In this document: positions 21,828 to 30,585 of the stretch, piece by piece
How positions within the stretch are numbered: position 1 is the first letter of the stretch
How the letters are laid out: each line of letters starts with the position of its first letter
Assembly: GCA_964631125.1 (NCBI GenBank)
Contig: CAZVYN010000008.1
Span: 3,746-67,745, forward strand
Origin: an uncultured bacterium
GTDB taxonomy: Bacteria; Eisenbacteria; RBG-16-71-46; CAIMUX01
Direction of reading: 5' to 3'
DNA: 64,000 nt
Translations under genes and position numbers: made by a program
Notes under the pieces: generated by a model
What the model was told of the DNA's origin: nothing
Database searches by the model: none
The model's input: only the letters and a program-made list of their open reading frames with translations

Positions 21828-23333
21828 ATGACCGAGACGTTCCACCCGGCGCACTTCGCGCACCTGCTCCTCCTGATCGGCGTTGTCATCGTCGTCGCCG
21901 CGTCTGTTTCGGGTCTGCTCGAGCGATGGTCCATGCCGCCGGTCGCGGTTTTCCTCGCGCTGGGCGCGGCGCTCGGCCCGCTCGGCCTCGGACTGGCGGC
22001 GTTCGGCCTGGAGTCGCCGGCGCTCGGTGCGGTCGCGACCCTCTCGCTCATCCTCGTGCTCTTCACCGACGCGGTCTCGCTCGATTTCCGTGCGCTCCGC
22101 GCGCACATCGGGATCGCACTGCTCGTGTTGGGGCCGGGCACGCTCGTCACCGCCGCGATCATCGCCGCCGCGTCGGTCTGGTTGCTCGATCTCTCTCTCG
22201 CCCAGGCGGCGATTCTCGGAGCGGCTCTGGCTTCGACCGATCCGGTGATGGTGCGAGGGCTGCTTCGTCGGTCCGGCGTTCCCGATTCCGCCAAGACCGC
22301 GCTGGGAGTGGAGAGCGGACTGAATGACGTGGTCTTGCTCCCGATCGTCCTCGTCGCGACCGCGATGCTGGTGAAGGGGAGTGGACTGGAGTTCAGCGAG
22401 ACAGCCAGGGTGGTCGGAGAAGTGCTGATCCTGGGCCCGCTGGCCGGGGTCGGCGTCGGCTTCCTGGCCGTGCGACTGCTGGAACAGATGCGCAATCGAT
22501 TCGGGATGCGCCGTGACTACGAGTCACTCTACGTGCTCGGCGTCTCTTTCACCGCCTACGCCTTGGCCGAGTCGATGCACGCGAGCGGCTTCATGGCGGC
22601 GTTTGCGGCCGGACTCACCGTCGCGCTCGTCGGCGTCGAACTCTGCGACTGTTTCCACGACTACGGCGAGGCGACCGCCGAGGCCTTCCTGCTCTTCGCC
22701 TTCGTCGCCATCGGAGGCAGCGTCATCTGGTCGGGACTCGACGTGATCAGCGCGAACGCGCTCCTCTTCGCCTTCATCGCGCTCTTCGCCCGCAGCGTCG
22801 TGCTTGCCGTCGCTCTCTCCGGCTCCGAAATGGACGCCCACGGACGACGCATGACCGTCTGGTTCGGTCCCAAGGGGCTGAGCAGCCTCTTGCTCGTACT
22901 CCTGCCGATCTTCGCGGGGGCGGACGCCGCACTCGAGCTCTTCCCGATCTGCGCGCTGGTGGTGCTGCTCTCGGTCGTCGTGCACGGAGGCATGCCGTGG
23001 TTCCTGGCGCCGCATCAAGCGAAGGACCAACGCAACGCGCCGCGAAACGCCCGTGGCTCGGTTTCGCCCGAGGCGCGGCATGACACGCGCGCCGAGACGC
23101 GCAGTGACCCGCCCCTGGTGGCGAACCGCGTGCTCATCACCTTCGACGAGGTGCAGCGCCTGCGCGACGCCGGTCACTCGGTCACGATCCTCGACTCACG
23201 GACTCCAGGCAGTTTCGCCGAGAGCGACCGACGTGCGACGGGCGCGGTTCGCCTCCCGCCCGACGAAGCGGTCGAGAGCGCCGCGCGACTCGCGTTGCCG
23301 CGCAGCGATTGGCTCGTCGCCTTCTGCGCCTGA
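21828..23333 (+). CDS. CPA1-type cation/proton antiporter fused to a C-terminal rhodanese domain that is interrupted by an in-frame TGA
   Basis: The Na+/H+ exchanger TM core is followed by a rhodanese fold (VTILDSRTPGSFAESD...LVAFCA). A TGA at 23331-23333 falls two codons after the catalytic Cys. The same frame stays open for 44 more codons (SNEATSARVARDLQQAGWKNARALVGGWAQWQEAEWP), which complete the rhodanese domain up to 23468. Confidence 0.7.
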   Translation: MTETFHPAHFAHLLLLIGVVIVVAASVSGLLERWSMPPVAVFLALGAALGPLGLGLAAFGLESPALGAVATLSLILVLFTDAVSLDFRALRAHIGIALLVLGPGTLVTAAIIAAASVWLLDLSLAQAAILGAALASTDPVMVRGLLRRSGVPDSAKTALGVESGLNDVVLLPIVLVATAMLVKGSGLEFSETARVVGEVLILGPLAGVGVGFLAVRLLEQMRNRFGMRRDYESLYVLGVSFTAYALAESMHASGFMAAFAAGLTVALVGVELCDCFHDYGEATAEAFLLFAFVAIGGSVIWSGLDVISANALLFAFIALFARSVVLAVALSGSEMDAHGRRMTVWFGPKGLSSLLLVLLPIFAGADAALELFPICALVVLLSVVVHGGMPWFLAPHQAKDQRNAPRNARGSVSPEARHDTRAETRSDPPLVANRVLITFDEVQRLRDAGHSVTILDSRTPGSFAESDRRATGAVRLPPDEAVESAARLALPRSDWLVAFCA

Positions 23334-23509
23334 AGCAACGAAGCAACAAGCGCCCGTGTGGCGCGAGATCTACAACAAGCAGGATGGAAGAACGCGAGGG
23401 CCCTCGTCGGGGGATGGGCGCAGTGGCAAGAGGCGGAGTGGCCGACCGAACTCGAGTCGGACGGTTAGAACTCCGCCCGCCCCGCGCTCCGCTGGTACTC
23501 TCGCCCCCC

Positions 23510-26547: not shown

Positions 26548-29500
26548 ATGTCGCCCCTCCAGAGCTTCCATCCGACGGTTCGCGAATGGTTCGCGCGCGA
26601 GCTCGGCGAACCGACTCGACCGCAGGCAGAGGGGTGGACGCAAATCCGAGCGGGGCGGCACACGCTGATCGCCGCCCCGACCGGCACCGGCAAGACGCTG
26701 GCGGCCTTCCTCTGCGCAGTCGACGAACTCCTGCAACGGGGTGAGGCGCTCGCCGATGAGACGAGCGTCTTGTACGTCTCGCCGCTCCGCGCGTTGTCGA
26801 ACGACGTGCAGAAGAATCTGGCGGAGCCGCTCGCGGCGTTCCATGCGCTCGATCCCTCGTTGCCGGAAGTGCGCGTGTTGGTGCGGACCGGCGACACGCC
26901 GAACAAGGAACGCACGGCGATGCGGAAGCGCGCGCCGCACGTGCTCGTGACGACGCCGGAGTCGCTCTATGTCCTGCTCACTTCGGCGAGCGGGCGCGCC
27001 ATGCTCCGAACGGTGCGCACGGTGATCGTCGATGAGATCCATGCCCTCGCGCGCGACAAGCGCGGCTCTCATTTGGCGCTCTCGCTCGAACGATTGAGCG
27101 AACTCTGTCTCAGACACACGGGCCGCGAAGTGCAGCGGATCGGACTCTCCGCCACGCAGAAACCGATCGAAGACGTGGCGAGGCTGCTGGCTGGCGAGGG
27201 CCGGGACTGCGCACTGGTCGACGCCGGGCATCTGCGGTCGATCGATGTCGATATCGTCGTGCCCGACACTCCGCTCTCGGCGGTCTGCACGCATGAGCAG
27301 TGGCGCGAGCTGTACGCGAAGATGTCCGCCTTGATCCGCTCCCATCGCGTCACGCTCGTCTTCGTCAACACGCGGAAGCTGGCCGAGCGGCTGACCGCGC
27401 GGCTGACCGAGGAGCTGGGGGCAGGGCAGGTCTCCTGTCACCACGGGAGCCTGTCGAGGGAGACGCGCCTGGCGGCCGAGGAGCGTCTGAAGCGAGGCGA
27501 ACTGCGAGCGCTGGTCGCGACGGCGTCGCTCGAACTGGGCATCGATATCGGAGATGTCGATCTCGTCGTGCAGGTTGGCTCGTCGCGCACGATCGCGACG
27601 TTTCTCCAGCGCGTCGGGCGCGCGGGGCATGGCGTGCACCGCACTCCGAAAGGCCGACTGTTCGCGCTCACCCTCGATGAAGCGGTGGAGGCGGTCGCGG
27701 TCCTCTCCGCCGTGAGGCGCGGGCTGCTCGACCGGACTCCGCAGGCGCCGGGCGCGCTCGATATCCTTGCACAGCAGATCGTGGCCGAGTGTTCGGCGAC
27801 CGAAGAGTCGGCGGCGTGGAGAGAAGACCAGCTCTTCGCCTGCTTCCGGCGGGCGTTTCCCTATCGCGATGCGCCGCGCGAGGATTTCGACGCGCTGCTG
27901 ACGCTGCACTCGACCGGCCGCAATGCGCTGCTGCACCGCGATGCCGTGGGCGGACGGGTGCTCGCGACCAAGCGCGCGCGGATCCCGGCGCTGACCAGCG
28001 GAGGCGCGATTCCCGACAACGCCGACTATCGCGTGGTGAGCGAACCCGGGGGCACGTTCATCGGGACGTTGAACGAGGACTTCGCGATCGAGTCGAACGT
28101 GCATGACATCTTCCAGCTCGGCAATGCCTCGTGGCGCGTGCTCGGGATCGAACCGGGGACAGTGCGCGTCGCCGACGCCCAGGGTGCGCCGCCCAACCTG
28201 CCGTTCTGGCTGGGCGAGGCGCCCGCGCGAAGTCTGGAACTGTCGGCGGAAGTCAGCCGCGTGCGCGAGGAGTGCACCGGCGCCGCGTGGGTCACCACCG
28301 AAACCGGTGTCGGCCGCGAGGTGGCCGAGCAGGTCGCCGAGTATCTGGAGACCGGTCGCGCCGGGCTCGGCGCGATGCCGAGCATCCGCCGCATCGTGGT
28401 CGAACGATTCTTCGACGAGTCTGGCGGCATGCAGCTCGTGATCCATGCGCCCTTCGGCAGCCGCATCACGAAGGCGTTCGGTCTGGCGCTGCGCAAGAGA
28501 GTCTGTCGGAGCTTCGGCTTCGAGCTGCAGGCGGCGGCCGACGAACAGTCGATCGTGCTCTCGCTCGGCCTGCAACACAGCTTCGCGCTCGACGAGGTCT
28601 TCGAGTGGCTGCGCAGTACGACCGCCAAGGATGTCCTCGTGCAAGCGATACTGGCGGCGCCGATGTTCACCACGCGGTGGCGCTGGAACGTCGGCCGATC
28701 GCTCATGCTGCCGCGGACTCGGGGCGGCAAGCGCGTCGCGCCGCAACTGCTCAGGATGAAGGCCGAAGATCTGCTCGTGCAGGCGTTCCCGCAAGTCGTC
28801 GCCTGCGGCGAGACGCTGCCGCCCGGCGATATCGAGCCGCCCATGGACCATCCGATCGTGAAGCAGACGATCGAGGACTGCCTGCACGAGGCGCTCGACG
28901 TCGACGGGCTGCTCGAGGTGCTGCGCGGGCTGGAGGACGGCAGCATCGAGCGACACGCGGTCGATACGACGGAGCCGTCGGTCTTCGCGCACGGCATTCT
29001 CTCGGCCCAGGTCTACAGCTTCCTCGATGACGCGCCGCTGGAGGAGCGCCGCACTCAGGCGGTGCGGACGCGACGCGTGCTCGGCGCCGGCGACGCGGAT
29101 GAGATCGGTGTGCTCGATGTTGACGCGATCGACCGGGTGCGCGAAGAGGCCTGGCCCAAGCCGGAAAGCGCCGAAGAGGTCCACGAGGCATTGCTCTGGA
29201 TGGGATTCGTCACCGACGAGGAGGCGCTCGCGTGGCGCGTTTGGCTGGACGAACTGGCCGAGGCGCGACGCGTGGTGAGAGTGGACGGCGCTCGCGGACA
29301 TCGCTGGTACGCGGTCGAAGCGCCGCGGAGCGGCAGGGAAGTACTACGCGGGCGGCTGGAGGCGCTCGGCCCGGTGAGCGCGGACGACCCACTCATCGTC
29401 GAGTTTGCGAACGAAGTCTTGGAGCTGGAGCAGGAAGGCGCGGTGTTGCGCGCCCGCTTCCCTTCGCGCGGCGGCGGGTCATCGAATGGCTGGTGCATCC

Positions 29501-30585
29501 GTCGCCTGCTGGCGCGCATCCACCGCTACACGCTCGATCGGCTCCGGCGAGAGATCCAACCGGTGACCGCAGCCGAGTTCTTGCGTTTCCTGGCGGTCTG
29601 GCAGCACGCGGACCCCGAGCAACCGTTGCAGGGACCGCGCGGCGTGCTCGCGGTGGTCGAACAGCTCTCGGGATTCCAGGCGCCGGCCGAAGCGTGGGAA
29701 AGGCAGATCTTGCCCGCCCGCGTGAAGGGGTATGACGCGCGGTGGCTGGATGAACTCGCGTTTTCCGGCGAGATTGCGTGGGGTCGATTGTGGAGCGCGA
29801 GCGACTGCGCCGCGCGCTCGATCCCTGTGTCGATCGTGCCGAGAGCCGAACTCGATCGGTGGGCCGCGCTCTGCGAGCCCGGAGATCTCACCGACCTGCC
29901 GGGCGAAGCGCGGACGCTGCTGGATCTGCTCATGTCGCGCGGCGCGTCATTCCAACAAGATCTCGCGCGCGCGAGCGGCCTGTTGCCGTCTCGCATCGAT
30001 GATGCGTTGGTCACATTGATCGGTCGGGGTCTCGTGACTTGTGATGCGTTCTCCGGCCTGCGCGCACTCTTCGGGCGCAACGAGGCCCGCACTCGAAACG
30101 GTCGTCGTCGCAACGGCCGCACCCGACCCTCACGCATCGCTCCGGTCATCGCGGGACGGTGGAGCCTCTTCCGGGATCCACGCGCGTCGGCCGGGTCGTC
30201 GATCGTTTCGATGGAGGCGCCGCCGGACGACGCGCTGGTCGAGTTCGCCGCGCGCACGCTCCTCGCTCGGACCGGTGTCGTCTTCAAGAGCACGATCGCG
30301 AGGGAGCGGCTCCCGATCGGATGGCGCGATCTCTTGCGCTGCTTCCGCCGCATGGAGGCTCGCGGCGAGATCCACGGAGGACGGTTCGTGGCGGGATTCC
30401 ACGGCGAGCAGTACGCGCTGCCGGAAGCGGTCCGGGGGTTGCGCGCGACCCGCAAGTTGCCGGAAGGCGCGCCGCTCCATGTCGACGCCGCCGACCCCCT
30501 CAACTACGCGGGGATTCTCACGCCGGAGAAGCGCGTCGCCTCGAACACCCATCGTCGGGTCGATGTCGTGCCCGCGTCGAGCTGA
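26548..30585 (+). CDS. lhr: Lhr-like ATP-dependent DEAD/DEAH-box helicase (large helicase-related)
   Basis: Walker A AAPTGTGKTLAAF, DEIH box VIVDEIHAL. Helicase C domain and Lhr-specific C-terminal extension. 1345 aa. Confidence 0.85.
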   Translation: MSPLQSFHPTVREWFARELGEPTRPQAEGWTQIRAGRHTLIAAPTGTGKTLAAFLCAVDELLQRGEALADETSVLYVSPLRALSNDVQKNLAEPLAAFHALDPSLPEVRVLVRTGDTPNKERTAMRKRAPHVLVTTPESLYVLLTSASGRAMLRTVRTVIVDEIHALARDKRGSHLALSLERLSELCLRHTGREVQRIGLSATQKPIEDVARLLAGEGRDCALVDAGHLRSIDVDIVVPDTPLSAVCTHEQWRELYAKMSALIRSHRVTLVFVNTRKLAERLTARLTEELGAGQVSCHHGSLSRETRLAAEERLKRGELRALVATASLELGIDIGDVDLVVQVGSSRTIATFLQRVGRAGHGVHRTPKGRLFALTLDEAVEAVAVLSAVRRGLLDRTPQAPGALDILAQQIVAECSATEESAAWREDQLFACFRRAFPYRDAPREDFDALLTLHSTGRNALLHRDAVGGRVLATKRARIPALTSGGAIPDNADYRVVSEPGGTFIGTLNEDFAIESNVHDIFQLGNASWRVLGIEPGTVRVADAQGAPPNLPFWLGEAPARSLELSAEVSRVREECTGAAWVTTETGVGREVAEQVAEYLETGRAGLGAMPSIRRIVVERFFDESGGMQLVIHAPFGSRITKAFGLALRKRVCRSFGFELQAAADEQSIVLSLGLQHSFALDEVFEWLRSTTAKDVLVQAILAAPMFTTRWRWNVGRSLMLPRTRGGKRVAPQLLRMKAEDLLVQAFPQVVACGETLPPGDIEPPMDHPIVKQTIEDCLHEALDVDGLLEVLRGLEDGSIERHAVDTTEPSVFAHGILSAQVYSFLDDAPLEERRTQAVRTRRVLGAGDADEIGVLDVDAIDRVREEAWPKPESAEEVHEALLWMGFVTDEEALAWRVWLDELAEARRVVRVDGARGHRWYAVEAPRSGREVLRGRLEALGPVSADDPLIVEFANEVLELEQEGAVLRARFPSRGGGSSNGWCIRRLLARIHRYTLDRLRREIQPVTAAEFLRFLAVWQHADPEQPLQGPRGVLAVVEQLSGFQAPAEAWERQILPARVKGYDARWLDELAFSGEIAWGRLWSASDCAARSIPVSIVPRAELDRWAALCEPGDLTDLPGEARTLLDLLMSRGASFQQDLARASGLLPSRIDDALVTLIGRGLVTCDAFSGLRALFGRNEARTRNGRRRNGRTRPSRIAPVIAGRWSLFRDPRASAGSSIVSMEAPPDDALVEFAARTLLARTGVVFKSTIARERLPIGWRDLLRCFRRMEARGEIHGGRFVAGFHGEQYALPEAVRGLRATRKLPEGAPLHVDAADPLNYAGILTPEKRVASNTHRRVDVVPASS

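Follow-up and report, generated by a model that had tools for sequence, protein, structure and literature searches.

A probable selenocysteine codon with its own SECIS-like hairpin at the catalytic position of a rhodanese-like domain fused to a CPA1-type antiporter

The window analysed here, a 64-kb stretch of contig CAZVYN010000008.1 from an uncultured bacterium, carries a gene for a cation:proton antiporter whose open reading frame closes at a TGA lying within a C-terminal rhodanese-like domain. Comparison with homologous sequences makes it very likely that this in-frame UGA is a conserved selenocysteine (Sec) codon, equipped with its own selenocysteine insertion sequence (SECIS) and placed at the catalytic position of the antiporter-fused rhodanese. 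The comparative data give good support for three component claims: that translation passes the UGA, that Cys is the alternative residue at the site, and that a hairpin under selection accompanies the UGA forms. From the same data we infer that Sec is the residue inserted, and our confidence in any specific function for the Sec-rhodanese domain is low. Sec in this rhodanese subtype is already known; its fusion to a CPA1 antiporter was not found in the selenoprotein literature searched.

The reading frame (21828–23333, forward strand) ends L-V-A-F-C-A-TGA, with TGC at 23325–23327, GCC at 23328–23330 and TGA at 23331–23333. Beyond the TGA, 44 in-frame codons, SNEATSARVARDLQQAGWKNARALVGGWAQWQEAEWPTELESDG, extend to a TAG at 23466–23468. 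A first-pass annotation of this DNA had described the frame, the position of the TGA and the 44-codon continuation, all of which were confirmed on the sequence and its translation. For domain searches, Cys was substituted for the stop. The resulting read-through protein matches Pfam Rhodanese (PF00581) over residues 439–536 and profile positions 2–102 of 102, with scores of 32.0 and 36.6 bits against a threshold of 22.2; a complete domain thus spans the TGA, in agreement with the earlier assignment of the downstream codons to the C-terminal half of a rhodanese. The protein contains four Cys residues and the predicted Sec (C273, C275, C375, C500 and U502).

The TGA column aligns with Cys65 of Escherichia coli GlpE (M-C-Y-H-G-N-S-S versus A-U-S-N-E-A-T-S) and with the active-site Cys of the rhodanese-like protein of PDB entry 6MXV (C-G-G-G-F-R-S loop). 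The description of the TGA as lying two codons after the catalytic Cys therefore needs correcting: the TGA itself occupies the catalytic position, and Cys500, two residues before it, is an extra invariant residue. This correspondence defines a C-x-U motif with Sec as the presumed nucleophile. GlpE and PspE of E. coli and the 6MXV protein share the fold, and their catalytic Cys column is the U column here; they differ in the active-site loop, which in the present family reads U-[P/S]-N-E-A-T-S and is acidic, without the basic residues found in thiosulfate sulfurtransferases, and in the extra Cys at position −2. The acidic loop and the additional Cys make sulfurtransferase activity of this rhodanese-like domain uncertain. 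In an AlphaFold2 (AF2) model of a 52%-identical Cys-form homologue (mean pLDDT 85.8), strand 497–501 leads through C502-A-C504 into helix 505–519; the part of the rhodanese fold past the UGA position comprises two helices and two strands.

Among curated families, the closest is NF041203 ("rhodanese_LYCAU, rhodanese-related (seleno)protein"), matched over profile positions 23–124 of 126 with E = 1e-23 to 5e-25. The rhodanese subtype is shared, as is a [Y/F]-C-A-U motif with Sec at the catalytic site, and both U and C forms exist; the L-Y-C-A-U motif of the family appears as A-F-C-A-U in the window and as A-Y-C-A-U in most orthologues. The architectures differ. NF041203 is named as a whole (seleno)protein, and its 126-position model implies a stand-alone domain, whereas here some 435 residues of antiporter and linker precede the domain, which forms the C-terminal module of a roughly 545-residue antiporter. 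A CxU rhodanese selenoprotein, predicted with bSECISearch, appears in reviews as "form 3" and also as "COG0607 form 2".

Turning to the distribution of the stop, the exact 501-residue product is encoded on 22 contigs, and an identical 280-nt segment including the TGA is present in four independent assemblies (a 141-kb contig at ENA, a JGI metagenome and two Logan assemblies). The 120 best matches to the complete read-through protein (49–59% identity) fall into two groups: 76 end at exactly the TGA residue, as ...WLVAYC[A/T/S] (479–507 residues), and 44 are full length (524–678 residues, plus one fragment of 187 residues) and carry C-x-C-P-N-E-E-T-S at the site. The rhodanese domain alone, used as a protein query, returned one match. 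For three truncated orthologues the DNA was fetched by protein identity. All three have TGA at the site, after which the frame stays open for 41–45 more codons with the conserved pattern xxE[AH]TS[AV]RV[AT]REL..GW..ARALVGGW.AWQERG.P.EPK, followed by a real stop. The residue that replaces the stop among homologues is Cys (TGY), not the Ser (by a TCA to TGA change) that the first-pass annotation had considered, nor the Ser, Thr or Gly that it had named as a possible sign of pseudogenisation. A neighbour-joining tree built from the antiporter parts separates Sec from Cys forms and requires at least three switches. The relatives of the TGA-form antiporter that carry names come from metagenome-assembled genomes (MAGs) of Gemmatimonadales (57–59% identity).

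A wider set was assembled with a metagenome scan in which W-L-x-[AG]-[YF]-C-x-TGA was fixed together with GGW 75 nt downstream; it gave at least 116 distinct TGA-form sequences in DNA of 50–72% GC. At least 481 upstream codons were present in 73 of the 80 listed metagenome relatives with a closed upstream frame, which identifies these as antiporter fusions. Seven relatives have short upstream frames: L095, L143 and L152 carry antiporter sequence in another frame, which indicates frameshifted contigs, L150 carries antiporter sequence to the end of its contig, and L110, L125 and L158 have no assignment. A genome scan with the pattern [FY]CxC[PSE]N[ED][EAR]TS, which can recover Cys forms only, found C-x-C at the site in 156 loci, and these served as the Cys control set.

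The sequence beyond the TGA behaves as coding sequence. In 117 distinct sequences (the window and the listed relatives), the frame stays open for 30–65 codons past the TGA. Across the 116 listed sequences, column entropy over the 40 codons after the TGA is 0.52, 0.52 and 1.27 at the three codon positions, compared with 0.96, 0.85 and 1.58 over the 40 codons before it, so that the downstream segment is the more conserved of the two; past the true stop, every codon position has an entropy of 1.96. The coding pattern is also evident in the five codons that separate the TGA from the hairpin described below (0.52, 0.59 and 1.22). Third positions are constrained within the hairpin codons, with an entropy of 0.49 versus 1.44 further downstream.

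The hairpin was examined on 103 distinct 75-nt segments. RNAalifold returned a single consensus helix, pairing columns 32–36 with 42–46, which correspond to 23350–23354 and 23360–23364; the short hairpin gcgcc-cgtgt-ggcgc noted in the first-pass annotation as starting 17 nt past the TGA was thereby recovered. Counted over the 103 segments, the five pairs are GC 103; CG 96, UA 4 and UG 3; GC 97, AU 4 and GU 2; CG 94 and UA 9; and CG 101, UA 1 and CA 1. Overall, 99.8% of hairpin cells are paired, and compensatory double changes occur in four of the five pairs. Of 500 shuffles, none equalled the observed value on four of five measures, and on the fifth, further pair types, 138 did; sliding the 3′ partner by one to three columns in either direction lowered pairing to 20–72%. 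Part of the covariation leaves the peptide unchanged (AGC to AGU with GCG to GCA; GCC to GCU with GUG to GUA), and some is accompanied by coordinated changes in the protein, from S-A-R-V-A to S-V-R-V-T or S-T-R-V-V.

This hairpin is largely specific to the TGA forms. All five pairs are intact in 115 of the 116 listed TGA forms versus 11 of 80 Cys-form genome loci. The difference holds among sequences encoding the same peptide, S-A-R-V-A, where the hairpin is found in 96 of 97 TGA forms and 4 of 14 Cys forms (Fisher p = 2e-10); within this same set, Ala codon 7 is GCC in 96 of 97 TGA and 5 of 14 Cys forms. In TGA forms the Arg codon of the loop is always either CGG or CGU, while all four CGN codons are used in Cys forms. 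A total of 135 copies of the motif are present in the 1.4 Mb of fetched DNA: 130 lie 16 nt past the TGA, five at the equivalent site of Cys forms, and none elsewhere. Five Cys-form loci carry the hairpin nucleotides (L013:3208, L033:1202, L034:3208, L036:1310 and L063:3178, all on the forward strand), L013 with a U-A covariant. Such Cys-form hairpins may be fossil SECIS elements left after Sec-to-Cys conversion, or by-products of encoding S-A-R-V-A in GC-rich codons.

A published model of the bacterial SECIS (bSECIS) specifies an apical loop of 3–9 nt, an upper stem of 4–16 bp, a distance of 16–37 nt between UGA and loop, a minimum free energy (MFE) of −7.5 kcal/mol or lower, and a G at loop position 1 or 2, usually followed by G or U (PMC13188914, Fig. 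2). The candidate fits, with a 5-nt loop (C-G-[G/U]-G-U), a 5-bp stem, a spacing of 21 nt and an MFE of −7.6 kcal/mol for the hairpin alone to −10 kcal/mol. The hairpin had been judged short for a bacterial SECIS, a verdict that does not stand against this model, every constraint of which it satisfies. The prototype SECIS of E. coli fdhF is likewise an intragenic hairpin just past its UGA, with a small loop in which G is followed by G or U; folded in the same way, its loop begins 18 nt after the UGA, versus 21 nt here. The present element differs from typical bacterial SECIS elements in its 5-bp stem, in lacking a conserved lower stem or bulged U, and in its sequence, and binding by SelB is inferred. 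A lower-stem extension pairing CGAAG (+6 to +10) with CTTCG (+37 to +41), present in one subgroup, lies outside the RNAalifold consensus and was rejected. A loose scan of the window for a TGA followed by a hairpin gave eight matches, among which only that at 23331 lies within a long frame (509 upstream codons).

Several observations weigh against a Sec codon with its own SECIS. Searches of the 64-kb window and of 1.4 Mb from related loci, by tblastn with E. coli SelA, SelB, SelD, FdhF and FdnG and with ARAGORN, found no selA, selB, selD, tRNA-Sec or formate dehydrogenase gene; for sequence of this extent such a lack is expected by chance. The match to NF041203, at 83.3 bits for the whole protein and 87.7 for the domain alone, falls below the curated cut-off of 115. 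Since the metagenome pattern demanded TGA and the downstream GGW, TGA makes up 100% of that set by construction, and the set is silent on TAA or TAG at the site. The stem has just 5 bp, and a conserved lower stem was not found in the consensus. Folding the sequence downstream of the TGA, as the first-pass annotation had proposed, gave no help: shuffled versions fold at least as well as the single 70-nt sequence (z = +1.05), whose MFE structure lacks the hairpin. For an element of 15 nt, a single-sequence fold is uninformative; no Rfam family matches 23200–23500 at E ≤ 10, and with both results the case for the hairpin rests on comparative data. Part of the hairpin follows from encoding S-A-R-V-A in GC-rich codons, as 4 of 14 such Cys forms have the hairpin, and the sequences are phylogenetically related, so that the shuffle statistics overstate their independence.

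These considerations bear most directly on UGA readthrough without Sec, also among the three options of the first-pass annotation, in which the hairpin would promote insertion of a standard amino acid (Trp, Cys or Arg) by a near-cognate tRNA, or would set the balance between truncated and full-length protein, with no involvement of SelB or tRNASec. Such a process would be compatible with the lack of Sec machinery in the sequences searched and with a hairpin that is short and unremarkable in single-sequence folding, and the downstream coding signature tells of continued translation rather than of the identity of the residue. We nonetheless consider it improbable. At precisely this codon, homologues encode the catalytic Cys and nothing else, which is the signature that defines selenoproteins; the hairpin follows bSECIS rules in its loop (G, then G or U) and spacing and is specific to TGA forms; C-A-U is also the motif of the closest curated family, itself a recognised selenoprotein; and Trp or Arg at the catalytic position would inactivate the domain. 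Sec recoding giving a C-x-U pair, one of the options raised in the first-pass annotation, is in turn backed by the Cys/TGA pattern, by coding selection downstream and by the TGA-specific SECIS-like hairpin.

The remaining alternatives deny that the protein continues through this codon, or that the codon is special. A recent nonsense mutation or a sequencing or assembly error in a single genome would need one substitution, TGC or TGT to TGA, and gene callers do report a 501-residue product. Set against this are the identical DNA of four independent assemblies, the recurrence of the stop, both among the 120 best homologues (76 of them) and in at least 116 distinct metagenome sequences, strong purifying selection on the 40 codons past the stop, which are more conserved than the 40 before it, and a true stop that always follows 30–65 codons later. 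With more than 100 diverged TGA orthologues, this explanation, also listed in the first-pass annotation, is excluded for practical purposes. True termination at the TGA, with the 36–44 downstream codons made separately to yield a split rhodanese, finds some encouragement in a GTG-initiated frame of 36 residues (23358–23468) whose GTG is nearly invariant. The codons between TGA and GTG (x-N-E-A-T-S-A-R), however, are conserved at the amino-acid level with variable third positions (Thr as ACA, ACC, ACG or ACU), a coding pattern showing that they are translated and ruling out re-initiation at GTG 23358; the active-site loop would also be lost from both pieces, and conservation of the GTG is explained by its place at the junction of loop and stem in the hairpin. 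We hold this arrangement to be very improbable. The idea that the whole genome reads UGA as a sense codon, in the manner of genetic codes 4 or 25, has nothing in its favour beyond the in-frame TGA itself and merits hardly any credence: among the 16 other genes called near the antiporter on its contig, 8 have TGA as their normal stop, and TGA is the true stop in 55 of the 117 distinct family sequences (the window and listed relatives), from which we conclude that UGA is not reassigned genome-wide.

The antiporter part of the protein matches Na_H_Exchanger (PF00999) over residues 23–389 with 123.1 bits against a threshold of 26.2. Residues S136-T137-D138-P139 and N166-D167 are invariant across the homologue alignments. 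Ion-binding T-D (on the unwound helix) and N-D motifs are conserved marks of electroneutral CPA1 exchangers. The best sequence match in the PDB is PaNhaP (phmmer, E = 1e-9 to 4CZA), and the AF2 model of the Cys-form homologue superposes on PaNhaP and MjNhaP1 with TM-scores of 0.72–0.75 (target-normalised), followed among its structural neighbours by SLC9C1, SOS1, NHE and KefC. This model has about 13 transmembrane helices, a disordered linker (404–432) and a confident rhodanese domain. The archaeal antiporters PaNhaP and MjNhaP1 (PDB 4CZ8, 4CZA and 4CZB; CPA1) resemble the antiporter part in the Na_H_Exchanger domain and the fold, with the TDP and ND motifs invariant here, but are only about 23% identical and lack the rhodanese domain, Sec and the ELCDCF motif. 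Matches to the NCBIfam substrate equivalogs for K+/H+ and Na+/H+ exchange are all far below their cut-offs (NF003716, 140 bits versus 355; TIGR00831, 71 versus 279.6).

The ELCDCF motif, E-L-C-D-C-F, is a second CxC motif at residues 271–276 (window positions 22638–22655, with C273 at 22644–22646 and C275 at 22650–22652). It is kept in 118 of the 120 best homologues, in Sec and Cys forms alike, and is missing at the aligned position of E. coli NhaP2/CvrA. From the homologue model, it probably sits on the cytoplasmic side, at the start of helix 270–306. A role as partner of the rhodanese C-x-U is speculative.

The domain arrangement has possible functional analogues. KefC, with its KTN domain that senses glutathione and electrophiles, plant SOS1 and sperm SLC9C1 are likewise built from an exchanger core joined through a linker to a regulatory domain in the cytosol. 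Their regulatory domains are unrelated to rhodanese, and the likeness is one of functional analogy only. KefC gating works through thiol chemistry. The same NF041203-like module occurs C-terminally on DedA/VTT membrane proteins of many Acidobacteriota and other soil MAGs (loci L013–L084; 64–90 bits), some of them with the hairpin nucleotides. These proteins have another membrane domain, and their rhodanese is in the Cys form (CxC); only Cys forms appear among them because the genome scan pattern required Cys. Its presence on DedA/VTT proteins makes the rhodanese look like a portable cytoplasmic module of membrane proteins. An antiporter–rhodanese selenoprotein fusion was not found in the literature searched, which comprised reviews, the BSepDB and deep-Sep papers, and papers that mention selenoproteins, antiporters and rhodaneses together; a search for literature on the Sec trait in Gemmatimonadota likewise found nothing. 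The transport-linked selenoproteins listed in a 2026 review include no cation/proton antiporter.

Table 1. Features of the antiporter–rhodanese gene in the window, and examples of DedA/VTT–rhodanese fusions in related loci.
Feature	Position	Strand	Basis
CDS part 1: antiporter, linker and N-terminal rhodanese half	21828–23330	+	501 codons; open reading frame list, translation
Na+/H+ exchanger transmembrane domain (residues 23–389)	21894–22994	+	Pfam PF00999; invariant columns
C273-D-C275 within the E-L-C-D-C-F motif of the antiporter domain	22644–22652	+	118/120 homologues
Rhodanese-like domain (residues 437–541), split by the TGA	23136–23450	+	Pfam PF00581; NCBIfam NF041203
Cys500 codon TGC, Cys of the C-x-U motif	23325–23327	+	Sequence; invariant C70 in homologue alignment
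UGA, predicted Sec residue 502, at the rhodanese catalytic-Cys position	23331–23333	+	Homologue Cys/stop pattern
CDS part 2: 44 codons finishing the rhodanese fold, and true stop TAG (23466–23468)	23334–23468	+	Frame conservation, entropy
Candidate bacterial SECIS hairpin: stem 23350–23354/23360–23364, loop CGUGU 23355–23359	23350–23364	+	RNAalifold, covariation
DedA/VTT–rhodanese fusion examples	L015:2380–3378, L034:2362–3360, L063:2296–3342, L068:2326–3339		

Three orthologue contexts have no neighbouring gene in common with the window, and shared neighbours occur only on L085 and L086, two contigs that are close relatives; the antiporter is thus apparently not part of a conserved operon. 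Within the 64-kb window, ARAGORN found no tRNA gene, and no Rfam family reached its gathering score. The window also encodes an Lhr-like helicase (26548–30585, forward strand; 1345 residues) with 74–76% identity to its closest relatives, which are metagenome proteins, and best named matches in Planctomycetota MAGs (62–65%) rather than in Gemmatimonadota; the window may come from a lineage that has been little sampled.

Taking the UGA as a Sec codon, we propose that one gene gives rise to a single selenoprotein of about 545 residues, comprising an NhaP/CPA1-type antiporter and a C-terminal, probably cytoplasmic rhodanese-like domain with C500-A-U502. By analogy with the established bacterial pathway, the hairpin at 23350–23364, 16 nt past the UGA, would be bound by SelB carrying Sec-tRNASec; the UGA at 23331–23333 would be read as Sec, and translation would run on for 44 codons to the TAG at 23466. 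Speculatively, the C-x-U pair could regulate ion exchange by forming a selenenyl-sulfide or by binding sulfur, selenium or a soft metal, perhaps together with ELCDCF, in a manner analogous to the C-terminal regulatory domains of KefC, SOS1 or SLC9C1. Under low selenium, termination at the UGA would leave a 501-residue exchanger without half of the rhodanese domain, that is, without its gate. A passage in PMC4513850 describes Sec recoding in E. coli as just 30–40% efficient. The fullest version of this proposal makes the Sec-rhodanese a selenium-dependent gate on the exchanger, in which C500-x-U502, possibly with ELCDCF, would sense redox state, persulfide or selenide, or a soft metal(loid), with the efficiency of UGA decoding as a second layer of control; we offer it as a tentative idea that is rather unlikely to be correct as stated. 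If it were true, this would be, to our knowledge, the first ion exchanger with Sec-dependent regulation.

The finding has a direct bearing on annotation. NCBI, JGI and ENA gene calls stop all TGA forms at the TGA codon (for example, entries P0019, P0022, P0043, P0049, P0085 and P0089), and these truncated entries are named "cation:proton antiporter" or "hypothetical protein" [Gemmatimonadales bacterium], with only PF00999 annotated; on four contigs, an apparent gap of about 135–510 nt separates the truncated call from the next called gene. A widespread family, apparently abundant in soil bacteria and including 76 of the 120 best homologues of the window's protein, is thus cut at the predicted Sec codon, and as the calls end there, the rhodanese domain and its active site are invisible in current annotation. 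The hairpin clearly illustrates how an RNA structure can overlie a coding sequence, with the amino-acid pairs Ala/Ala, Val/Thr and Thr/Val co-varying to keep base pairs, and these co-varying pairs make it useful for training SECIS predictors. For the selenoproteome, the fusion would add an antiporter with a Sec-containing C-terminal domain, and the use of Sec would extend to abundant soil and rhizosphere lineages. The C-x-U and ELCDCF motifs together offer a testable hypothesis of redox or chalcogen control over ion exchange.

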